From assembly GCF_013122565.1 (NCBI RefSeq), contig NZ_CP053258.1: a stretch of DNA of 64,000 nt; one strand, 5' to 3'. Positions within the stretch are counted from its first letter, which is position 1. Every line of letters starts with the position of its first letter. The translations under genes and the position numbers were made by a program. Source of the stretch: Escherichia coli (GTDB taxonomy: Bacteria > Pseudomonadota > Gammaproteobacteria > Enterobacterales > Enterobacteriaceae). Shown here one piece after another: positions 1-60,104 of the stretch. The notes beneath the pieces are model-generated. The model saw nothing but the letters and a program-made list of their open reading frames with translations, was not told the DNA's origin and did not search any database.

Positions 1-505
1 TCTCGTCGATATACACTTCGAACTCAATCATATGCGCCACTTTGCCTGGATGAAGTACCACTTCATTTATCGCGGTGCTGATGCGCTTTTGGCAATCTTG
101 CTGACAGACTTGCGCTTCCAGCAAAAAACGTTTTTCGCTGATGTAGTGACCTTCCAGCACATCGGCTAATTGTTGCTGGGCGTTATCGGGGTCAAGGTCA
201 GTCAGGAAACCCAGGTTGCCACGGTTGATTCCAATAACTTTAATATCGTAGCGTGCGAGCGTGCGCGCCGCGCCCAGCATATTACCGTCGCCGCCAACGA
301 CTACCGCGAGATCAGCCAGTTGCCCAATCTCCGCGAGCGTGCCAGTTTTCACATTCTTCAGTTGCAGTTCGTGAGCGATTTGTTGCTCAACGATGACCTC
401 GTAACCTTTTGTGCACAGCCAGCGGTAGAGCATTTCATGTGTTGTCAGTGCAGTAGGGTGCCGTGGGTGTCCCACAATGCCAATACACTTGAAATGATTA
501 TTCAT
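1..505 (-). CDS. nadK: NAD kinase, N-terminal part (gene runs off the window start)
   Basis: Minus-strand ATG at 505 translates [14 protein letters not shown]..., matching NadK N-terminus; frame stays open to position 1. Divergent from grpE as in E. coli. Confidence 0.85.
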
Positions 506-553
506 TTTTCCGAGGTCCTTGTTGCGAAGATTGATGACAATGTGAGTGCTTCC

Positions 554-581
554 CTTGAAACCCTGAAACTGATCCCCATAA
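554..581 (+). promoter_or_regulatory. sigma32 heat-shock promoter of grpE (-35 CTTGAAA, -10 CCCCATAA)
   Basis: CTTGAAA at 554-560 and CCCCATAA at 574-581 with 13-bp spacer, 47 bp upstream of grpE ATG; matches sigma32 consensus CTTGAAA / CCCCATnT. Confidence 0.5.
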
Positions 582-594
582 TAAGCGAAGTTAG

Positions 595-1221
<627 letters not shown>

Positions 1222-1242
1222 TTTCTGTTTTCGTAATAATTC

Positions 1243-1277
1243 ACGGCCCAGCATGCGAATGCCGGGCCGTTTTTTTA
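1243..1277. terminator. rho-independent terminator between convergent grpE and yfjD
   Basis: GC stem CGGCCC / GGGCCG around a 14-nt loop followed by TTTTTTT (1271-1277). Confidence 0.55.
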
Positions 1278-2561
1278 CTCCGCCACACTCTCGCGCAGCG
1301 GTTTCACAGGAAAAACTTTTACCTGCTTAATCATATTGTCCTGTACGTCGAGAATATCGATATCGTACTCGCCAATACGCACGCGGGTGCCAGCGACAGG
1401 GATCTCTTCCAGAGCTTCAAGAATGACGCCATTAACCGTGCGGGCATCGTCTTCAGGTAGATGCCAGTTAAAGGCTTTGTTGATTTCCCGCACGTTGGCG
1501 GTGCCATCGATAATCACCGAACCGTCGTTTTGCGGCGTGACCTCTTCGGCAAGTGTTGGCGACATCGACGTAGTAAAATCGCCGACAATCTCTTCCAGAA
1601 TATCTTCAACCGTCACCAGCCCCTGAATGTCTCCATACTCGTTGACGACCAGACCGACTTTCTTTTTGTTGCGCTGAAACTTCACCAACTGCGTGCTGAG
1701 CGGCGTACCTTCGGGCACAAAATAGATCTCGTCCGCGGCGCGCAGCATGGTTTCTTTGGTGAACTCTTTTTTCTCCGACATCAACCGCCAGGCTTCACGT
1801 ACTCGCAGCATACTGATGGCGTCGTCCAGCGAATCACGGTAGAGCACGATGCGCCCGTGAGGTGAGTGGGAGAGTTGGCGCAGAATCGATTTCCAGTCAT
1901 CGTTGATATCAATACCGATAATTTCACTGCGCGGAACCATGATGTCATCAACGGTCATTTTTTCCAGATCGAGCACCGACAGCAGCATATCCTGATTGCG
2001 ACGGGAAATTTGTGAGCGCGATTCGTGCACGATAGTGCGCAACTCTTCTTTGCTCAAAGAGCCGCTAACCACGATATCGGTTTTGATACCCATCATGCGC
2101 ATCAGCATACGGGTGATAGCATTCAGCAACCAGACCAGCGGCATCATCAAAATTTGCAGCGGAGCCAGCAGAAAACTACTCGGATAAGCGACTTTTTCCG
2201 GGTACAGCGCGGCAATGGTTTTCGGCAATACCTCAGCAAAAACCAGTACGACAAAAGTCAGCACACCAGTCGCAATTGCCACGCCCGCATCGCCGTACAA
2301 ACGCATCCCAACAATAGTGCCGAGCGCGGAGGCAAGAATATTGACCAGGTTATTGCCGATTAACACCAGGCTTATCAGGCGGTCTGGCTTACGCAGCAAT
2401 TTTTCGACGCGTTTGGCCGAGCGATTACCCTGTTTCGCCATATGTCGCAGACGATAGCGGTTGAGGGTCATCATTCCGGTTTCGGACCCGGAAAAATAGG
2501 CTGAAATGACCACCATGATGATCAGAATAATGATCAACGTAGTAGTAGAAATGTGTTCCAG
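1275..2561 (-). CDS. yfjD: CNNM/CorC-family inner-membrane Mg/Co efflux protein with CBS domains (YfjD/CorB)
   Basis: ORF track 1275..2537 (420 aa; track start is TTG). Frame remains open upstream; a CTG at 2561 preceded by AGGAG would give 428 aa, the length I recall for K-12 YfjD. Start codon uncertain (2516 ATG, 2537 TTG or 2561 CTG). Confidence 0.8.
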   Translation of the reverse strand: MEHISTTTLIIILIIMVVISAYFSGSETGMMTLNRYRLRHMAKQGNRSAKRVEKLLRKPDRLISLVLIGNNLVNILASALGTIVGMRLYGDAGVAIATGVLTFVVLVFAEVLPKTIAALYPEKVAYPSSFLLAPLQILMMPLVWLLNAITRMLMRMMGIKTDIVVSGSLSKEELRTIVHESRSQISRRNQDMLLSVLDLEKMTVDDIMVPRSEIIGIDINDDWKSILRQLSHSPHGRIVLYRDSLDDAISMLRVREAWRLMSEKKEFTKETMLRAADEIYFVPEGTPLSTQLVKFQRNKKKVGLVVNEYGDIQGLVTVEDILEEIVGDFTTSMSPTLAEEVTPQNDGSVIIDGTANVREINKAFNWHLPEDDARTVNGVILEALEEIPVAGTRVRIGEYDIDILDVQDNMIKQVKVFPVKPLRESVAE

Positions 2562-3373: not shown

Positions 3374-3539
3374 AGTAATGTCGACAGTTTGAGCAATAAG
3401 AAAGAGAAGCAGTATAGCGTCAGGTGAACGCTGCTCCAACCGTTGCATAACAACAAAGACGCCTTCATGTTATACTGCGGCAAAATACTGATGATGTGTC
3501 GCGATTGCGGCCAACCGTTTCCACCCCAGGCGAGAGACA

Positions 3540-4901
3540 ATGTTTGATAATTTAACCGATCGTTTGTCGCGCACGCTGCGCAATATCAGTGGCCGTGGAC
3601 GCCTCACTGAAGACAACGTAAAAGATACGCTGCGCGAAGTGCGCATGGCGCTGCTGGAGGCGGACGTCGCTCTGCCGGTAGTGCGTGAGTTTATCAATCG
3701 CGTAAAAGAGAAAGCGGTTGGTCATGAAGTTAATAAGAGCCTGACGCCGGGGCAGGAGTTCGTCAAAATCGTCCGTAACGAACTGGTTGCGGCGATGGGC
3801 GAAGAGAACCAGACCCTGAACCTGGCGGCGCAACCGCCTGCGGTCGTGCTGATGGCGGGCCTGCAAGGTGCCGGTAAAACAACCAGCGTTGGTAAACTCG
3901 GTAAGTTCCTGCGCGAGAAGCACAAGAAGAAAGTGCTGGTGGTTTCTGCCGACGTTTATCGCCCGGCGGCAATCAAACAGCTTGAGACGCTGGCAGAGCA
4001 GGTGGGCGTTGATTTCTTCCCTTCTGATGTTGGTCAGAAGCCGGTAGATATCGTTAACGCGGCGCTGAAAGAAGCCAAACTGAAATTCTACGACGTGCTG
4101 CTGGTGGATACCGCCGGTCGTCTGCACGTTGACGAAGCGATGATGGACGAGATCAAACAAGTCCATGCGTCGATTAACCCGGTTGAAACCCTGTTTGTGG
4201 TTGACGCCATGACCGGTCAGGATGCGGCCAATACGGCAAAAGCATTCAATGAAGCGTTACCGCTTACCGGCGTAGTGTTGACCAAAGTGGACGGCGATGC
4301 CCGCGGCGGTGCGGCGCTCTCTATTCGTCACATCACTGGCAAACCGATCAAGTTCCTCGGTGTTGGCGAGAAAACTGAGGCGCTGGAGCCGTTCCATCCG
4401 GACCGCATCGCGTCGCGTATTCTCGGCATGGGCGACGTACTGTCGCTGATCGAAGATATCGAAAGCAAAGTTGACCGCGCGCAGGCAGAGAAATTAGCCA
4501 GCAAGCTGAAAAAAGGCGACGGCTTCGATCTCAACGATTTTCTTGAGCAACTGCGCCAGATGAAAAATATGGGCGGCATGGCTAGCCTGATGGGCAAGCT
4601 GCCGGGCATGGGGCAGATCCCGGATAACGTCAAGTCGCAGATGGACGATAAAGTGCTGGTGCGTATGGAGGCCATCATCAACTCGATGACGATGAAAGAG
4701 CGCGCTAAGCCAGAAATCATCAAAGGTTCGCGTAAGCGTCGTATCGCCGCTGGTTGCGGGATGCAGGTACAGGACGTTAACCGCCTTCTGAAGCAGTTCG
4801 ACGACATGCAGCGCATGATGAAGAAAATGAAGAAGGGCGGAATGGCGAAGATGATGAGAAGCATGAAAGGGATGATGCCGCCGGGATTTCCTGGTCGCTA
4901 A
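3540..4901 (+). CDS. ffh: signal recognition particle protein Ffh
   Basis: 453-aa ORF with GTPase motifs (GLQGAGKTT, DTAGR, TKVDG) and Met-rich C-terminal M domain. Confidence 0.97.
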   Translation: MFDNLTDRLSRTLRNISGRGRLTEDNVKDTLREVRMALLEADVALPVVREFINRVKEKAVGHEVNKSLTPGQEFVKIVRNELVAAMGEENQTLNLAAQPPAVVLMAGLQGAGKTTSVGKLGKFLREKHKKKVLVVSADVYRPAAIKQLETLAEQVGVDFFPSDVGQKPVDIVNAALKEAKLKFYDVLLVDTAGRLHVDEAMMDEIKQVHASINPVETLFVVDAMTGQDAANTAKAFNEALPLTGVVLTKVDGDARGGAALSIRHITGKPIKFLGVGEKTEALEPFHPDRIASRILGMGDVLSLIEDIESKVDRAQAEKLASKLKKGDGFDLNDFLEQLRQMKNMGGMASLMGKLPGMGQIPDNVKSQMDDKVLVRMEAIINSMTMKERAKPEIIKGSRKRRIAAGCGMQVQDVNRLLKQFDDMQRMMKKMKKGGMAKMMRSMKGMMPPGFPGR

Positions 4902-13591: not shown

Positions 13592-13624
13592 AGTGTTGCC
13601 TTTTTGTTATCAATAAAAAAGGCC

Positions 13625-13652
13625 CCCCGATTTGGGAGGCCTTATTGTTCGT
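13625..13652 (-). terminator. pheA attenuator terminator
   Basis: On minus strand AAGGCCTCCC-AAATC-GGGGGGCC followed by TTTTTT, between pheL stop (13690) and pheA start (13591). Confidence 0.65.
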
Positions 13653-13689
13653 CTTCGCATTCTGTTTCACACGACGAAACGCCTCCCAT

Positions 13690-13737
13690 TCAGGGGAAGG
13701 TAAAAAAGAATGCGAAGAAAAACGGTGTGTGTTTCAT
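13690..13737 (-). CDS. pheL: pheA operon leader peptide (15 aa, 7 Phe codons)
   Basis: Minus-strand ATG AAA CAC ACA CCG TTT TTC TTC GCA TTC TTT TTT ACC TTC CCC TGA = [15 protein letters not shown]. Below the ORF-track size cutoff. Confidence 0.8.
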   Translation of the reverse strand: [15 protein letters not shown]

Positions 13738-13790
13738 GTTTGTTTCCTTAAGTGACTTTAGTACAGTACCCGTACTGTTTTCACGCTGTC

Positions 13791-13840: not shown

Positions 13841-14236
<396 letters not shown>

Positions 14237-14403
14237 TCAAAATGTGTGATGGAAATCTCATAATTTTGTCACTTTTTGTCAACGAATCTTTTTTGTGAGA
14301 AATCGCAGGAAGAGGTGTTTTTTTACTTGAGGAATATCTCAAAGCGAGCCATATTTGATGAGATCGATAGTGACTAAATCGCTTCAGTTTCACAACTAAC
14401 AGA

Positions 14404-14436
14404 ATAAAAAAACGGCAGCTCAAGGGCTGCCGTTTT
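14404..14436 (-). terminator. bamD rho-independent terminator
   Basis: On minus strand AAACGGCAGC-CCTTGA-GCTGCCGTTT followed by TTTTTTT. Confidence 0.55.
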
Positions 14437-14452
14437 GTGTTTCAGGTTTTTG

Positions 14453-15190
14453 TTATGTATTGCTGCGGTTTGCAGCGATGATTTTCGCTACTTTTTCAGC
14501 TTGCGCATTCATCTGCATCTGGCGGTATGCATTTTCCATCAGCGGCAGCGCATCACGCGTAGCTTGGGTATCCGGGTAGTCGCGCAACATGCCTTCTACG
14601 CGGTTAACGACGGCAACCCATGCGCCACGTTCTGTATAGTACTCGGCAACGGAGTATTCATATTTCGCCAGACGATCTTTCAGGAATACCAGACGTTTGG
14701 TGGCATCGGTGGTGTACTGACTGTTCGGATAGCCGCGCACCAGTTTGGAAAAGTCACTAAACGCAGCTCGTGCATGTTGAGGATCGCGATCGCTACGATC
14801 GACGCCAAAGAACCCTTGCAGCGCACTGTCATCCAGCGCCATATTGGTCAGGCCACGCATGTACATAACATAATCGATATTCGGATGGGTCGGGTTAAGG
14901 CGAATAAAACGATCGATGGCAGCCTGTGCTAACGGCAAATCGGCGTTTTTATAGTAGGCGTAGATGAGATCCAGCTGCACCTGCTGCGAATACGGACCAA
15001 ACGGATAGCGATTATCTAACGCTTCCAGTTGCGTTATTGCCTGTCTCCAGTTACCGTCCTGCAGCTTTTGTTGTGCAGTCGCGTAAATTTCATTTGGCGG
15101 ATTATCAGGTACTTCTTCCTTTGACCCCGAGCAACCCGCCAAAAACAGGCTTAGTGTGGCGGCTGCCACCAGATATTTCATGCGCGTCAT
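14453..15190 (-). CDS. bamD: outer membrane protein assembly factor BamD (YfiO), TPR lipoprotein
   Basis: 245-aa [29 protein letters not shown]... with lipobox. Confidence 0.95.
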
Positions 15191-15324
15191 GACGTTTTGA
15201 CTTTCCTCAAAATGTAATACGGGAGATTCTCTGTTCCTGCTCCCGGTTAAGACCAGCTACAATAGCACACTATATTAAACGGCAAAGCCGTAAAACCCCA
15301 ACGATAAACGAAGAAGCAGTATAT

Positions 15325-16305
15325 ATGGCACAACGAGTACAGCTCACTGCAACGGTGTCCGAAAACCAACTCGGTCAACGCTTAGATCAGGCTTTGGCCG
15401 AAATGTTCCCGGATTATTCACGTTCGCGGATAAAAGAATGGATCCTCGACCAGCGCGTGCTGGTTAACGGCAAAGTTTGTGATAAGCCGAAAGAAAAAGT
15501 ATTGGGTGGCGAGCAGGTTGCCATCAACGCTGAGATTGAAGAAGAAGCGCGTTTTGAACCGCAGGATATCCCGCTGGATATCGTCTATGAAGATGAAGAC
15601 ATTATTATCATTAATAAACCGCGCGACCTGGTGGTACATCCTGGCGCGGGTAACCCGGATGGCACGGTACTGAATGCGTTGCTTCATTACTATCCACCCA
15701 TTGCCGATGTACCGCGTGCGGGCATCGTCCATCGTCTGGATAAAGACACCACTGGCCTGATGGTTGTGGCAAAAACCGTTCCGGCTCAGACGCGTTTAGT
15801 CGAATCTTTGCAACGGCGTGAAATTACTCGTGAGTATGAAGCGGTGGCGATTGGTCATATGACCGCAGGTGGCACGGTGGATGAGCCAATCAGTCGCCAC
15901 CCGACCAAACGTACTCACATGGCGGTGCATCCGATGGGCAAACCAGCGGTGACTCACTATCGCATCATGGAACACTTCCGTGTGCACACGCGTCTGCGGT
16001 TGCGTCTGGAAACTGGACGTACGCACCAGATCCGCGTGCATATGGCCCATATCACTCATCCGCTGGTGGGCGATCCGGTTTATGGTGGCCGTCCGCGTCC
16101 GCCAAAAGGTGCTTCGGAAGCGTTTATCTCCACGCTGCGTAAGTTTGACCGCCAGGCGCTTCATGCAACCATGCTGCGTCTTTATCACCCGATCTCCGGC
16201 ATCGAAATGGAATGGCATGCGCCTATTCCACAAGATATGGTGGAGCTGATTGAGGTGATGCGCGCCGATTTCGAAGAGCATAAGGATGAAGTGGACTGGT
16301 TATGA
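15325..16305 (+). CDS. rluD: 23S rRNA pseudouridine(1911/1915/1917) synthase RluD
   Basis: 326-aa ORF with S4 domain and pseudouridine synthase motif (HRLDKDTTGLMVVAK). Confidence 0.95.
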   Translation: MAQRVQLTATVSENQLGQRLDQALAEMFPDYSRSRIKEWILDQRVLVNGKVCDKPKEKVLGGEQVAINAEIEEEARFEPQDIPLDIVYEDEDIIIINKPRDLVVHPGAGNPDGTVLNALLHYYPPIADVPRAGIVHRLDKDTTGLMVVAKTVPAQTRLVESLQRREITREYEAVAIGHMTAGGTVDEPISRHPTKRTHMAVHPMGKPAVTHYRIMEHFRVHTRLRLRLETGRTHQIRVHMAHITHPLVGDPVYGGRPRPPKGASEAFISTLRKFDRQALHATMLRLYHPISGIEMEWHAPIPQDMVELIEVMRADFEEHKDEVDWL

Positions 16306-17033
16306 GTAAGCTGATTGTCCCGCAGTGGCCGCTGCCAAAAGGTGTTGCGGCCTGTAGCTCTACTCGTATCGGCGGCGTGAGCTTGCCCCCGTATGACTCG
16401 CTCAACCTCGGTGCTCATTGTGGCGATAATCCGGATCACGTTGAGGAGAATCGCAAGCGACTTTTTGCTGCGGGCAATTTGCCTTCTAAACCGGTCTGGC
16501 TTGAGCAGGTACACGGCAAAGATGTGCTTAAGCTTACTGGCGAACCTTATGCCTCAAAACGAGCAGATGCCTCTTATAGCAATACGCCCGGCACGGTTTG
16601 CGCAGTGATGACTGCCGACTGCCTCCCTGTGCTGTTTTGCAATCGAGCGGGAACGGAAGTCGCCGCCGCTCATGCTGGTTGGCGTGGACTGTGCGCAGGC
16701 GTGCTGGAAGAGACGGTTTCCTGTTTTGCTGATAATCCGGAAAATATTCTCGCCTGGTTAGGGCCGGCAATTGGTCCACGCGCGTTCGAAGTGGGGGCGG
16801 AGGTTCGCGAGGCGTTTATGGCAGCAGACGCCAAAGCGAGTACAGCTTTCATTCAGCATGGTGATAAGTATCTGGCAGATATTTATCAGCTTGCCCGGCA
16901 GCGTCTGGCGAGCGTTGGTGTTGAACAAATTTTCGGCGGCGACCGTTGTACATATACGGAAAATGAGACTTTCTTCTCTTATCGTCGCGACAAGACCACC
17001 GGTCGTATGGCAAGTTTCATTTGGCTGATATAA
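16302..17033 (+). CDS. pgeF: YfiH/PgeF family protein (purine nucleoside phosphorylase / laccase-like)
   Basis: 243-aa ORF; start overlaps rluD stop (ATGA). Confidence 0.9.
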   Translation: MSKLIVPQWPLPKGVAACSSTRIGGVSLPPYDSLNLGAHCGDNPDHVEENRKRLFAAGNLPSKPVWLEQVHGKDVLKLTGEPYASKRADASYSNTPGTVCAVMTADCLPVLFCNRAGTEVAAAHAGWRGLCAGVLEETVSCFADNPENILAWLGPAIGPRAFEVGAEVREAFMAADAKASTAFIQHGDKYLADIYQLARQRLASVGVEQIFGGDRCTYTENETFFSYRRDKTTGRMASFIWLI

Positions 17034-17095
17034 CCTAAAGAATCAAGACGATCCGGTACGCGTGATTTTCTTTTCACATTAATCTGGTCAATAAC

Positions 17096-17124
17096 CTTGA
17101 ATAATTGAGGGATGACCTCATTTA
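17096..17124 (+). promoter_or_regulatory. sigma32 heat-shock promoter of clpB
   Basis: CTTGAAT (17096-17102) and CCTCATTTA (17116-17124), 13-bp spacer, about 40 bp upstream of clpB ATG. Confidence 0.5.
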
Positions 17125-17162
17125 ATCTCCAGTAGCAACTTTGATCCGTTATGGGAGGAGTT

Positions 17163-19736
17163 ATGCGTCTGGATCGTCTTACTAATAAATTCCAGCTTGC
17201 TCTTGCCGATGCCCAATCACTTGCACTCGGGCACGACAACCAATTCATCGAACCACTTCATTTAATGAGCGCCCTGCTGAATCAGGAAGGGGGTTCGGTT
17301 AGTCCTTTGTTAACATCCGCTGGCATTAATGCTGGCCAGTTGCGCACAGATATCAATCAGGCATTAAATCGTTTACCGCAGGTTGAAGGTACTGGTGGTG
17401 ATGTCCAGCCATCACAAGATCTGGTGCGCGTTCTTAATCTTTGCGACAAGCTGGCGCAAAAACGTGGTGATAACTTTATCTCGTCAGAACTGTTCGTTCT
17501 GGCGGCACTTGAGTCTCGCGGCACGCTGGCCGACATCCTGAAAGCAGCAGGGGCGACCACCGCCAACATTACTCAAGCGATTGAACAAATGCGTGGAGGT
17601 GAAAGCGTGAACGATCAAGGTGCTGAAGACCAACGTCAGGCTTTGAAAAAATATACCATCGACCTTACCGAACGAGCCGAACAAGGCAAACTCGATCCGG
17701 TGATTGGTCGTGATGAAGAAATTCGCCGTACCATTCAGGTGCTGCAACGTCGTACTAAAAATAACCCGGTACTGATTGGTGAACCCGGCGTCGGTAAAAC
17801 TGCCATCGTTGAAGGTCTGGCGCAGCGTATTATCAACGGCGAAGTGCCGGAAGGGTTGAAAGGCCGCCGGGTACTGGCGCTGGATATGGGCGCGCTGGTG
17901 GCTGGGGCGAAATATCGCGGTGAGTTTGAAGAACGTTTAAAAGGCGTGCTTAACGATCTTGCCAAACAGGAAGGCAACGTCATCCTGTTTATCGACGAAT
18001 TACATACCATGGTCGGCGCGGGTAAAGCCGATGGCGCAATGGACGCCGGAAACATGCTGAAACCGGCGCTGGCGCGTGGTGAATTGCACTGCGTAGGTGC
18101 CACGACGCTTGACGAATATCGCCAGTACATCGAAAAAGATGCTGCGCTGGAACGTCGTTTCCAGAAAGTGTTTGTTGCCGAGCCTTCTGTTGAAGATACC
18201 ATTGCGATTCTGCGTGGCCTGAAAGAACGTTACGAATTGCACCACCATGTGCAAATTACTGACCCGGCAATTGTTGCAGCGGCGACGTTGTCTCATCGCT
18301 ACATTGCTGACCGTCAGCTGCCGGATAAAGCCATCGACCTGATCGATGAAGCAGCATCCAGCATTCGTATGCAGATTGACTCAAAACCAGAAGAACTCGA
18401 CCGACTCGATCGTCGTATCATCCAGCTCAAACTGGAACAACAGGCGTTAATGAAAGAGTCTGATGAAGCCAGTAAAAAACGCCTGGATATGCTCAACGAA
18501 GAACTGAGCGACAAAGAACGTCAGTACTCCGAGTTAGAAGAAGAGTGGAAAGCAGAGAAGGCATCGCTTTCTGGTACGCAGACCATTAAAGCGGAACTGG
18601 AACAGGCGAAAATCGCTATTGAACAGGCTCGCCGTGTGGGTGACCTGGCGCGGATGTCTGAACTGCAATACGGCAAAATCCCGGAACTGGAAAAGCAACT
18701 GGAAGCCGCAACGCAGCTCGAAGGCAAAACTATGCGTCTGTTGCGTAATAAAGTGACCGACGCCGAAATTGCTGAAGTGCTGGCGCGTTGGACGGGGATT
18801 CCGGTTTCTCGCATGATGGAAAGCGAGCGCGAAAAACTGCTGCGTATGGAGCAAGAACTGCACCATCGCGTAATTGGTCAGAACGAAGCGGTTGATGCGG
18901 TATCTAACGCTATTCGTCGTAGCCGTGCGGGGCTGGCGGATCCAAATCGCCCGATTGGTTCATTCCTGTTCCTCGGCCCAACTGGTGTGGGGAAAACAGA
19001 GCTTTGTAAGGCGCTGGCGAACTTTATGTTTGATAGCGACGAGGCGATGGTCCGTATCGATATGTCCGAGTTTATGGAGAAACACTCGGTGTCTCGTCTG
19101 GTTGGTGCGCCTCCGGGATATGTCGGTTATGAAGAAGGTGGCTACCTGACCGAAGCTGTGCGTCGTCGTCCGTATTCCGTCATCCTGCTGGATGAAGTGG
19201 AAAAAGCGCATCCGGATGTCTTCAATATTCTGTTGCAGGTACTGGATGATGGGCGTCTGACTGACGGGCAGGGGAGAACGGTCGACTTCCGTAATACGGT
19301 TGTCATTATGACCTCTAACCTCGGTTCCGATCTGATTCAGGAACGCTTCGGTGAACTGGATTATGCGCACATGAAAGAGCTGGTGCTCGGTGTGGTTAGC
19401 CATAACTTCCGTCCGGAATTCATTAACCGTATCGATGAAGTGGTGGTCTTCCATCCGCTGGGTGAACAGCACATTGCGTCGATTGCGCAGATTCAATTGA
19501 AACGTCTGTATAAACGTCTGGAAGAACGTGGTTATGAAATCCACATTTCTGACGAGGCGCTGAAACTGCTGAGCGAGAACGGTTACGATCCGGTCTATGG
19601 TGCACGTCCTCTGAAACGTGCAATTCAGCAGCAGATCGAAAACCCGCTGGCACAGCAAATACTGTCTGGTGAATTGGTTCCGGGTAAAGTGATTCGCCTG
19701 GAAGTTAATGAAGACCGGATTGTCGCCGTCCAGTAA
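17163..19736 (+). CDS. clpB: AAA+ disaggregase chaperone ClpB
   Basis: ORF track 17151..19736; ATG at 17163 after GGGAGGAG gives [19 protein letters not shown]..., 857 aa; two Walker A sites ([16 protein letters not shown]). Confidence 0.96.
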
Positions 19737-20179: not shown

Positions 20180-21721
<1,542 letters not shown>

Positions 21722-21806
21722 CCTTAAAGAAGCGTTCTTTGAAGTGCTCACACAGATTGTCTGATAGAAAGTGAAAAGCAAGGCGTCTTGCGAAGCAGAC
21801 TGATAC

Positions 21807-21882
21807 GTCCCCTTCGTCTAGAGGCCCAGGACACCGCCCTTTCACGGCGGTAACAGGGGTTCGAATCCCCTAGGGGACGCCA
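21807..21882 (+). tRNA. gltW: tRNA-Glu (anticodon UUC) in the 16S-23S spacer
   Basis: GTCCCCTTCGTCTAGAGGCCCAGGACACCGCCCTTTCACGGCGGTAACAGGGGTTCGAATCCCCTAGGGGACGCCA, 76 nt ending CCA. Confidence 0.95.
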
Positions 21883-22066
21883 CTTGCTGGTTTGTGAGTG
21901 AAAGTCACCTGCCTTAATATCTCAAAACTCATCTTCGGGTGATGTTTGAGATATTTGCTCTTTAAAAATCTGGATCAAGCTGAAAATTGAAACACTGAAC
22001 AACGAATGTTGTTCGTGAGTCTCTCAAATTTTCGCAACTCTGAAGTGAAACATCTTCGGGTTGTGA

Positions 22067-24970
<2,904 letters not shown>

Positions 24971-25063
24971 ACAACGCCGAAGCTGTTTTGGCGGATTGAG
25001 AGAAGATTTTCAGCCTGATACAGATTAAATCAGAACGCAGAAGCGGTCTGATAAAACAGAATT

Positions 25064-25183
25064 TGCCTGGCGGCCTTAGCGCGGTGGTCCCACCTGACCC
25101 CATGCCGAACTCAGAAGTGAAACGCCGTAGCGCCGATGGTAGTGTGGGGTCTCCCCATGCGAGAGTAGGGAACTGCCAGGCAT
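25064..25183 (+). rRNA. rrfG: 5S ribosomal RNA
   Basis: TGCCTGGCGGCCTTAGCGCGGTGGTCCCACCTGACCCCATGCCGAACTCAG...GGGAACTGCCAGGCAT, 120 nt. Confidence 0.96.
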
Positions 25184-36871: not shown

Positions 36872-36971
36872 TGCCGGATGCGGCGTGAACGCCTTATCCG
36901 GCCTACAAGATCGTGCAAATTCAATATATTGCATGAGCCACGTAGGCCTGATAAGCGTAGCGCATCAGGCA
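36872..36971. repeat. BIME: two inverted REP palindromic units
   Basis: TGCCGGATGCGGCGTGAACGCCTTATCCGGCCTACA and inverted GTAGGCCTGATAAGCGTAGCGCATCAGGCA. Confidence 0.7.
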
Positions 36972-42499: not shown

Positions 42500-43455
42500 T
42501 GAAGCAACTTTGGTTTGCCATGTCATTAGTGACAGGTAGCCTGTTATTCTCTGCTAACGCCTCGGCCACTCCCGCGTCCGGGGCGTTATTACAGCAGATG
42601 AACCTGGCCAGTCAGTCACTGAATTACGAGCTGTCATTCATCAGCATCAATAAACAGGGTGTTGAGTCTCTGCGTTATCGACATGCACGCCTCGATAACC
42701 GTCCTCTTGCACAATTGTTGCAAATGGATGGCCCGCGCCGGGAAGTGGTACAGCGCGGCAATGAAATCAGCTATTTTGAACCGGGACTTGAACCGTTCAC
42801 GCTTAATGGCGATTACATTGTTGATTCTCTGCCATCGCTCATCTATACCGATTTCAAACGCCTTTCTCCTTACTACGACTTTATCTCCGTCGGGCGCACG
42901 CGTATTGCTGATCGTCTTTGCGAAGTTATTCGCGTGGTTGCCCGAGATGGTACACGCTACAGCTACATCGTGTGGATGGACACCGAATCGAAATTACCGA
43001 TGAGGGTTGATCTCCTTGATCGCGATGGTGAAACGCTGGAACAATTTCGCGTGATTGCTTTTAATGTCAATCAGGATATCAGCAGCAGTATGCAGACGCT
43101 GGCGAAGGCAAATTTGCCGCCGTTGCTTTCTGTTCCTGTAGGTGAAAAAGCTAAATTCAGCTGGACGCCAACCTGGTTGCCACAGGGTTTTAGCGAAGTT
43201 TCCAGTAGTCGACGTCCGCTACCGACGATGGACAACATGCCTATCGAATCACGTCTCTATTCCGACGGATTATTCAGCTTCTCGGTAAACGTTAACCGCG
43301 CTACGCCATCGAGCACCGATCAGATGTTGCGCACCGGACGCAGAACCGTCAGTACAAGCGTACGTGATAACGCCGAAATCACCATTGTCGGTGAACTGCC
43401 GCCGCAAACGGCGAAACGCATTGCCGAGAATATTAAGTTCGGGGCAGCGCAATGA
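42499..43455 (+). CDS. rseB: sigma-E regulatory protein RseB
   Basis: 318-aa ORF with signal peptide MKQLWFAMSLVTGSLLFSANASA; start overlaps rseA stop. Confidence 0.95.
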   Translation: MKQLWFAMSLVTGSLLFSANASATPASGALLQQMNLASQSLNYELSFISINKQGVESLRYRHARLDNRPLAQLLQMDGPRREVVQRGNEISYFEPGLEPFTLNGDYIVDSLPSLIYTDFKRLSPYYDFISVGRTRIADRLCEVIRVVARDGTRYSYIVWMDTESKLPMRVDLLDRDGETLEQFRVIAFNVNQDISSSMQTLAKANLPPLLSVPVGEKAKFSWTPTWLPQGFSEVSSSRRPLPTMDNMPIESRLYSDGLFSFSVNVNRATPSSTDQMLRTGRRTVSTSVRDNAEITIVGELPPQTAKRIAENIKFGAAQ

Positions 43456-43931
43456 TCAAAGAGTGGGCTACCGTCGTCTCCTGGCAAAACGGGCAGGCGC
43501 TGGTCAGTTGTGATGTTAAAGCCTCATGCAGCAGCTGCGCTTCACGCGCCGGTTGCGGTAGCCGCGTGTTGAATAAACTTGGCCCGCAAACCACGCATAC
43601 CATTGTCGTACCCTGTGATGAGCCGTTAGTGCCGGGGCAAAAAGTGGAATTGGGGATCGCCGAAGGCAGCCTGCTTAGCTCCGCATTACTGGTTTATATG
43701 TCGCCGCTGGTGGGATTATTCCTCATCGCTTCGCTATTTCAGCTACTCTTTGCTTCTGACGTCGCAGCATTATGTGGTGCTGTCCTCGGCGGTATTAGCG
43801 GGTTCCTGATTGCGCGTGGCTACTCGCGTAAGTTTGCTGCCCGGGCAGAATGGCAACCGATCATCTTAAGCGTGGCATTGCCGCCTGGCCTTGTGCGATT
43901 TGAAACATCTTCGGAAGACGCGAGCCAGTGA
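43452..43931 (+). CDS. rseC: sigma-E regulatory protein RseC
   Basis: 159-aa ORF MIKEWATVVSWQNGQALVSCDVKASCSSC...; overlaps rseB stop. Confidence 0.93.
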   Translation: MIKEWATVVSWQNGQALVSCDVKASCSSCASRAGCGSRVLNKLGPQTTHTIVVPCDEPLVPGQKVELGIAEGSLLSSALLVYMSPLVGLFLIASLFQLLFASDVAALCGAVLGGISGFLIARGYSRKFAARAEWQPIILSVALPPGLVRFETSSEDASQ

Positions 43932-44128
43932 TTTCACTGGCTTTGTTGCATTTTGCATAACAAATGCGAGGACGTTTCCAGATACCACAATCCATACGGT
44001 ATGAACATTTCCTCGCCTCAATGTTGTAGTGTAGAATGCGGCGTTTCTATTAATACAGACGTTAAGCTCAGAACAGCGACTTCTAAAAGCCTGGTTAACC
44101 GGGCATTAAGGCACAATAATCATACTTT

Positions 44129-45928
<1,800 letters not shown>

Positions 45929-46970: not shown

Positions 46971-47062
46971 TGAGATAAATCTCCCGTGGCTAACGACATC
47001 CCCCGTCGTTGTGTATAGAATATTCCCCCGAAGTTTAAGGTTGGCACCTCCAGGTTGCCACG

Positions 47063-47156
47063 GCACACGAAACAGCGTTGGTCCCCATATACCGGTAAAC
47101 TGAAACTGCAGCGAAGCAGTTAGCAGAACCATGTATATCAGGTCTGTTTCGTGTGC
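47063..47156 (+). promoter_or_regulatory. rnc 5' leader stem-loop (candidate RNase III autoregulatory processing site)
   Basis: GCACACGAAACAG (47063-47075) pairs with CTGTTTCGTGTGC (47144-47156), a 13-bp long-range stem enclosing about 68 nt, just upstream of rnc ATG at 47190. Confidence 0.5.
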
Positions 47157-47159
47157 TGA

Positions 47160-48772
<1,613 letters not shown>

Positions 48773-50654: not shown

Positions 50655-50730
50655 TAAAGTAAAACCCCCGAACTGGTAAGGAACGGGGGTTTTACTTTAT
50701 TTTGTGCAGCACGCACCCTCAATGAGGATA
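50655..50730 (-). ncRNA. ohsC: candidate OhsC antitoxin sRNA (antisense regulator of shoB); boundaries approximate
   Basis: Minus-strand RNA from about 50725 to the terminator at 50661-50693 would carry the complement of 50704-50725, which is a near-copy of 50951-50972 in the shoB 5' UTR (19/22 identical; two differences become G-U pairs). Candidate -10 CATAAT (plus 50731-50736) and -35 TTGTAA (plus 50755-50760) on minus strand. Confidence 0.45.
50661..50699. terminator. bidirectional rho-independent terminator (acpS operon on plus strand; likely also ohsC on minus strand)
   Basis: AAAACCCCCG-13-nt loop-CGGGGGTTTT, flanked by T-runs on both strands. Confidence 0.6.
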
Positions 50731-59920: not shown

Positions 59921-60104
59921 AGTGGCTCATTCACCGACTTATGTCAGCCCCTTCGGGACGTGCTACATAAAATTCGAATGACGCACAACAAGGTGCCTGC
60001 CGTCCAACTTCTGATATCAGCGTAGCTATATCAACCATCGGGCGAAACGTCGAGTTAGGCACCGCCTTATTCCATAACAAAGCCGGGTAATTCCCGGCTT
60101 TGTT
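59921..60104 (+). ncRNA. glmY: small RNA GlmY
   Basis: Predicted start about 12 nt after sigma54 -12 GC; ends at strong terminator ACAAAGCCGGG-TAATT-CCCGGCTTTGT (60077-60103) followed by TGTATCT; about 184 nt. 5' and 3' ends approximate. Confidence 0.7.

Follow-up and report, generated by a model that had tools for sequence, protein, structure and literature searches.

Sigma32-type heat-shock promoters of grpE and clpB in a 64-kb stretch of an Escherichia coli chromosome

Two promoter motifs of the heat-shock type were located in a 64-kb stretch of Escherichia coli DNA (hereafter, the window), and these are almost certainly the promoters from which sigma32 (RpoH) is known to drive heat-shock expression of grpE and clpB. 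Both are textbook promoters, already known and the same as in K-12, and their detection serves mainly as a positive control for the recognition of sigma32 sites from raw sequence. Finding a pair of sigma32 promoters within 64 kb is nothing out of the ordinary; the sigma32 regulon is estimated to comprise several dozen transcription units in the 4.6-Mb genome.

In order to relate the window to a characterized genome, it was compared with K-12 MG1655. The window corresponds to an E. coli-type chromosome, in reverse orientation to MG1655 and spanning roughly 2.69–2.75 Mb of that genome, with window position x mapping to MG1655 (version 3) position 2,751,336 − x. The gene order runs nadK, grpE, yfjD, ypjD, ffh, rpsP-rimM-trmD-rplS and, further on, yfiH and clpB, followed by an rrn operon. 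Identity to K-12 over 21 kb of the window is 98.87%. Identity to MG1655 is 100% throughout the nadK-grpE intergenic region, which encompasses the -35 element, spacer, -10 element, 5'UTR and start codon, and there are zero differences from K-12 across window positions 456–756. The regulatory region is hence the same as that of K-12 grpEp, whereas the approximately 1.1% divergence found elsewhere falls in nadK, in grpE over its 3' half, and downstream of grpE. Likewise, the window and MG1655 share 100% identity over the yfiH-clpB intergenic region and the opening codons of clpB, so that the regulatory region is without any difference from that of the sigma32-dependent K-12 clpB promoter. Since both regulatory regions are 100% identical to those of K-12, the K-12 literature can be applied to them. 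Among 5,425 complete E. coli genomes, none matches window positions 1–1300 at more than 98.8%; for the 301 nt upstream of clpB, 100% matches exist.

Direct reading of the sequence places the grpE motif on the + strand exactly where the initial annotation had put it, with CTTGAAA at 554–560 and CCCCATAA at 574–581. The -35 element (TTCC-CTTGAA, 550–559, with the CTTGAA core at 554–559) was delimited by direct reading, by conservation and by the position of the consensus CTTGAA at -35 to -30, and its core matches CTTGAA at six of six positions. It is followed, after a gap of exactly 14 nt between CTTGAA and CCNCAT, by the -10 element CCCCATAAT (574–582, + strand, direct reading), within which CCCCATAA matches six of the seven specified positions of CCCCATNT(a), the mismatch with respect to the consensus CCCCATNT lying at the last -10 position. 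The -10 block ends 45 nt before the ATG at 628, with an orientation matching that of the gene. The grpE coding sequence (628–1221, + strand, 197 aa), taken from the open reading frame list and corresponding to the annotated grpE of E. coli genomes, is followed by an intrinsic terminator at 1243–1276 (+ strand), identified by folding as a hairpin (1243–1270) and a subsequent U-run, with a folding energy of -20 kcal/mol (z = -4.79) that none of 200 shuffles equaled. The grpE gene is a monocistronic unit running from the promoter at 554–582 to the terminator at 1243–1276. An RNA thermometer in the grpE 5'UTR was considered and ruled out, given that the fold of this region is no better than that of shuffles (z = -0.19). 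Further upstream, the hexamer GACAAT at 536–541, which lies in the shared nadK-grpE intergenic region some 50 nt upstream of where grpE transcription is predicted to start, is at least 98% conserved in 67 distinct upstream sequences and reads on the minus strand as TTGTCA, a -35-like hexamer. Inspection by eye and scanning for a divergent nadK sigma70 promoter, or a -10 element that would explain the GACAAT block, identified no convincing candidate.

The clpB motif was similarly found at the positions first assigned to it on the + strand, with CTTGAAT at 17096–17102 and CCTCATTTA at 17116–17124. Direct reading, motif scan and conservation concur in the delimitation of its -35 element (CTTGAA, 17096–17101) and its -10 element (CCTCATTTA, 17116–17124), again separated by a gap of exactly 14 nt between CTTGAA and CCNCAT. 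The -35 element matches CTTGAA at six of six positions, and the -10 element CCTCATTT at six of the seven specified positions of CCCCATNT(a), with a T replacing the third C of the consensus. The -10 block ends 38 nt before the true ATG at 17163, and promoter and gene are co-oriented. The distances of both elements from their start codons (45 nt for grpE and 38 nt for clpB) are as had been anticipated. The clpB coding sequence spans 17163–19736 (+ strand, 857 aa) when the K-12 annotation is mapped onto the window, and encodes a protein with 100% identity to a ClpB cluster representative. It is preceded by a Shine-Dalgarno sequence, GGAGG (17154–17158, + strand), with the ATG 5 nt further on, and contains the internal ClpB80 start, GTG, at 17607–17609 (+ strand, direct reading). 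The start codon at 17163 constitutes a correction, since the open reading frame list had placed it at the ATG at 17151. This upstream ATG is in frame and 12 nt ahead of the true start, leading to a mechanical open reading frame call of 861 rather than 857 aa. Several Pantoea and Erwinia ClpB database entries are also 861 aa long, presumably for the same reason.

Both elements were compared with the sigma32 promoter class as described in the literature. The published sigma32 consensus consists of TNtCNCcCTTGAA at -35 and CCCCATtTa at -10 or, alternatively, CTTGAA-N13-17-CCCCATNT, and about two-thirds of E. coli sigma32 promoters sit less than 100 nt from the start codon. The 14-nt gap seen in grpE and clpB falls within the 13–17 nt range of the class. 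A further point of comparison is dnaK P1, a near-consensus sigma32 promoter that served as scaffold for the cryo-EM structure of the sigma32 open complex (sigma32-RPo), in which CTTGAA lies at -35 to -30 and 14 nt separate it from CCCCAT, which thereby occupies -15 to -10. This 14-nt geometry and register are common to dnaK P1, grpE and clpB, whereas the spacers are unrelated and the -10 elements differ in detail (CCCCATTTA in dnaK P1, CCCCATAAT in grpE and CCTCATTTA in clpB). The upstream C-rich extension of the -35 consensus (TNtCNCcCTTGAA) finds a partial match in grpE and a poor one in clpB.

By analogy with dnaK P1, E-sigma32 would be expected to recognize CTTGAA at -35 and CCCCAT (grpE) or CCTCAT (clpB) at -15 to -10, 14 nt apart, and to start transcription about 10 nt past the T of the -10 element, at A589 for grpE and A17131 for clpB. 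These exact +1 positions are inferred from the dnaK P1 register (CTTGAA at -35 to -30, CCCCAT at -15 to -10), which for grpE predicts a start at the A at 589 (+ strand) and for clpB a start at A17131, followed by G17132 (+ strand). The resulting leaders would be short and unstructured, with 5'UTRs of 39 nt (grpE) and 32 nt (clpB). A rise in sigma32 upon heat or protein misfolding would then induce grpE and clpB alongside dnaK, groE and the other members of the regulon. For E. coli clpB, a secondary source (PMC6941012) refers to a heat-inducible sigma32 promoter and quotes primer-extension results in which an A was the primary start and the G next to it a secondary one; the predicted A17131/G17132 pair fits the A/G start pair reported there.

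While the motifs, their geometry, their identity to K-12 and their conservation were observed directly, the evidence for sigma32 dependence, for ChIP occupancy and for the clpB start was drawn from the literature. The ChIP-chip coordinates used here are presumably those of U00096.2, which at this locus lie 1,978 bp below those of version 3. After shifting by 1,978 bp, the sigma32 regions SigH_273 (2,748,133–2,749,219) and SigH_270 (2,731,757–2,732,618) of Cho et al. 2014 have their centres no more than about 55 bp from the start codons of grpE and clpB; unshifted, they would fall inside unrelated coding sequence. Given this inferred conversion, both promoters seem to be covered by sigma32 ChIP-chip regions, at a resolution of several hundred bp and with sigma70 and sigmaS regions overlapping the SigH_273 and SigH_270 intervals as well. 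According to a second-hand statement in the K-12 literature, sigma32 directs RNA polymerase to the grpE promoter. Membership of the heat-shock regulon, also proposed in the initial annotation, is borne out by the naming of K-12 grpE and clpB in the literature as sigma32-regulon genes with sigma32 promoters, their regions being base-identical to those in the window. In Pseudomonas aeruginosa, clpB and grpE are RpoH-induced as well. Other sources were silent on these loci: among the entries listed in the transcription start tables of Cho 2014 and Kim 2012 there is none near the predicted starts, grpE and clpB go unmentioned in a genomic SELEX study of minor sigma factors, the 3'-end study of Adams 2021 makes no mention of RyfD, clpB or grpE, and a full-text literature search with the exact promoter sequences returned no match. 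Following coordinate conversion, the sigma32 regions of Cho et al. 2014 also include the ffh/ypjD intergenic region (~3389–3738) and a region upstream of raiA (~14152–14539), neither of which contains a sigma32 motif with three or fewer mismatches. The sigmaE region SigE_7 from the same dataset, once converted, maps to the divergent bamD/rluD intergenic region (~15230–15630).

The conservation of both motifs was then assessed by phylogenetic footprinting. For grpE, one genome per species was used, yielding 80 Enterobacteriaceae loci and 67 distinct upstream sequences. The pattern CTTGAA-N14-CCCCATAAT is present in all 67 of these with an invariant 14-nt gap. Conservation reaches at least 98% in two blocks, TTCCCTTGAA (550–559) and ATCCCCATAATAA (572–584), while seven or more of the 14 spacer positions separating them are variable. 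For clpB, six loci were obtained via protein homologues and 80 via a DNA-pattern scan of metagenome contigs anchored at clpB codons 9–18. The metagenome scan identified CTTGAA-N14-CCTCAT, ending 37–43 nt before the ATG, in 21 of 21 distinct regions of the enterobacterial type. Adding the six homologue loci and the window itself resulted in an alignment of 25 sequences, in which the promoter is kept throughout (25/25), CCTCAT is invariant and the gap extends to 15 nt in two of the leaders. From about -38 to +7 this alignment shows hardly any variation, in contrast to the variable flanks on either side. A more distant set, comprising 57 distinct proteobacterial clpB upstream regions with unrelated spacers, was compared with dinucleotide shuffles. 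A motif with at most two mismatches, ending 25–80 nt before the ATG, was found in 54% of the 57 regions versus 0.26% of the shuffles, and a motif with at most one mismatch in 19% versus 0%. The result from distant taxa is a stronger footprint than the enterobacterial one.

It is possible, if somewhat doubtful, that the grpE site also functions as a dual promoter, at which sigma70 would provide basal expression of the essential GrpE and sigma32 its heat induction from approximately the same start, a reading that supplements the sigma32 one and does not replace it. The hexamers TTGAAA (555–560) and CATAAT (577–582), with a 16-nt spacer, make up a 10/12 match to the sigma70 consensus that is the only one in window positions 400–1400, although 1.2 such matches are expected by chance in the 1-kb stretch scanned, and both the 16-nt spacer and the C-rich stretch before the -10 hexamer are suboptimal for sigma70. 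The CATAAT hexamer is invariant in 67 of 67 upstream sequences, even though its AAT is not demanded at that location by the sigma32 consensus, and a scan of the clpB promoter for a comparable sigma70-type match found none. The sigma70 ChIP-chip region SigD_1109 overlaps the grpE promoter, but its signal may stem from the divergent promoter of nadK, located in this 123-bp intergenic region as well. Some of the starts assigned to sigma32 by RegulonDB were detected in a published in vitro transcription analysis with E-sigma70. Judging from its sequence, dual use of sigma70 and sigma32 at grpE is plausible and would fit the need for GrpE at all temperatures.

The clpB promoter lies within a further annotated feature, the small RNA RyfD or long clpB leader (17041–17183, + strand), which was recognized on the basis of the K-12 annotation b4609, of Rfam family RF02768 and of its fold. 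The match to RF02768 scores 125.3 bits against a gathering threshold of 42 and covers the full-length model (1–140) at 17044–17182 on the + strand. RyfD encloses the sigma32 promoter of clpB in its entirety, together with the leader and seven codons at the start of clpB. Its predicted fold (-52 kcal/mol, z = -5.6) was equaled by none of 200 shuffles and buries both the clpB Shine-Dalgarno sequence and the AUG. The 5' arm of the closing helix, AAGACGATCCGG (17045–17056, + strand), pairs in the Rfam structure with clpB codons 3–6 (17169–17180). According to RNAalifold, this helix comprises 11 pairs and is paired in 25 of 25 leaders, with one-sided variation at four pairs and two-sided variation at one. 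A second predicted helix joins an anti-Shine-Dalgarno sequence, UCUCC (17126–17130, + strand), which adjoins the predicted sigma32 start, to the Shine-Dalgarno GGAGG at 17154–17158; its pairs are kept in all 25 leaders but are mostly invariant. Overall, the 21 consensus pairs are intact in each of the 25 distinct enterobacterial leaders, a count that overstates their independence because the sequences are phylogenetically related. Standard pairs make up 100% of the 525 pair cells, versus 37–55% when the partners are slid, with a single double-sided change. In a shuffle control of the helix, 138 of 500 shuffles equaled the observed value, but this control is uninformative since the 3' arms are invariant coding sequence. 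In Yersinia, Ysr155/RyfD, which overlaps the 5' end of clpB in the same position and sense orientation as here, has been reported to be constitutive and temperature-independent.

The embedding of the promoter in RyfD raises an alternative explanation for its conservation, namely that the block at 17090–17137 is conserved as a part of RyfD and that its sigma32-like hexamers are incidental to an RNA-level function. The block does lie inside both the annotated RyfD and the RF02768 match, and the clpB spacer TTGAGGGATGA (17103–17115) is invariant in the 25 enterobacterial leaders, unlike the grpE spacer (560–573), and belongs to a TGAGG/CCTCA hairpin (17106–17120) of the predicted RNA fold. The clpB spacer is under an extra constraint relative to that of grpE. 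Nonetheless, distant proteobacterial clpB genes devoid of a RyfD-type spacer carry a sigma32 motif equally far from the ATG at the frequencies given above, a heat-inducible sigma32 promoter with a mapped start is cited in PMC6941012, sigma32 ChIP signal lies at the clpB promoter, and an RNA function of RyfD and a promoter function are compatible with each other. Conservation for RyfD function with incidental hexamers is therefore considered very improbable.

The statistical significance of the sigma32 motifs was evaluated by scanning both strands of the 64-kb window with the pattern CTTGAA-N14-CCCCATNTA, allowing for up to two mismatches. The only sites identified were those of clpB, with one mismatch, and grpE, with two; sites with three mismatches were intragenic or on the wrong strand. 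The two sites found compare with a chance expectation of 0.45, which rises to about 1.2 if gaps of 13–15 nt are allowed, and, of 100 shuffled versions of the window, 8 contained two or more sites. By number alone, then, the motifs exceed chance by only a modest margin. It is the placement of the sites that decides the case, since the window contains just two classical heat-shock genes and each of them has one of the sites 38–45 nt upstream, on its coding strand. At approximately 3.5 × 10−6 chance matches per strand position, the probability that each of the two genes has a match in the 100 nt upstream of it is, by our calculation, about 10−7. Hence, the notion that both motifs are functionless chance matches to a short, degenerate consensus, for which the shuffle result and the expectation with relaxed gaps would speak, retains next to no probability in view of this placement, of the invariance of both motifs across dozens of genera in which flanking or spacer bases vary, and of the identity of both regions to experimentally characterized K-12 promoters. 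The placement of the motifs and the data from distant taxa are the grounds on which both pure chance and conservation through RyfD only were rejected, in favor of the sigma32 promoters of grpE and clpB.

The relation between the structure of RyfD and the sigma32 start of clpB is the sole part of this analysis that extends beyond the literature examined, and it may point to an additional layer of control. The predicted sigma32 start at A17131 lies directly 3' of the CUCC of the anti-Shine-Dalgarno sequence, and the short sigma32-initiated clpB leader displays no more structure than random sequence (z = +0.4). Within the initiation region (-13 to +5), bases are unpaired with a mean probability of 0.14 in the long leader and 0.40 in the short one, the long leader having the lower value in 25 of 25 cases. 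On this basis it can be tentatively proposed, although we regard it as rather unlikely, that the RyfD leader acts as a translational insulator, such that only sigma32-initiated mRNA has an open clpB ribosome binding site and sigma32 control would extend to translation. Transcripts initiated upstream, whether from a possible promoter at 17026–17034 or by read-through from rluD-yfiH, would fold so as to pair the clpB Shine-Dalgarno sequence, the AUG and codons 2–6. Those initiated at A17131, one base past the anti-Shine-Dalgarno CUCC and downstream of the 5' arm, would leave the ribosome binding site open. If true, silencing of upstream-initiated clpB transcripts by RyfD would give a function to this orphan small RNA, and RyfD/clpB would exemplify the choice of a start site that avoids an anti-Shine-Dalgarno sequence. 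A candidate promoter for RyfD, the extended -10-like sequence TGATATAAC, is located on the + strand at 17026–17034, which is 7 nt upstream of the 5' end annotated for RyfD. Its assignment is speculative, as conservation is only partial and the last T of a -10 element is missing, and the conservation observed is itself ambiguous because the sequence overlaps the yfiH stop codon.

Several other features were identified in the window. Directly downstream of clpB lies a complete rRNA operon (20180–25181, + strand), composed of the 16S rRNA (20180–21721), a tRNA (21807–21879), a match to StyR-44 in the operon spacer (21960–22059), the 23S rRNA (22067–24970) and the 5S rRNA (25066–25181), all on the + strand. 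Rfam matches on the - strand correspond to the Phe leader (pheL attenuator, 13613–13738), the ohsC antitoxin RNA (50656–50720) and AsrC (43416–44247), which is antisense to rseC and thereby indicates that the rpoE-rse operon lies within the window. On the + strand, Rfam matches were obtained for ES036/CssrF (36907–36949), the rncO leader (47030–47244) and the GlmY small RNA (59921–60068).
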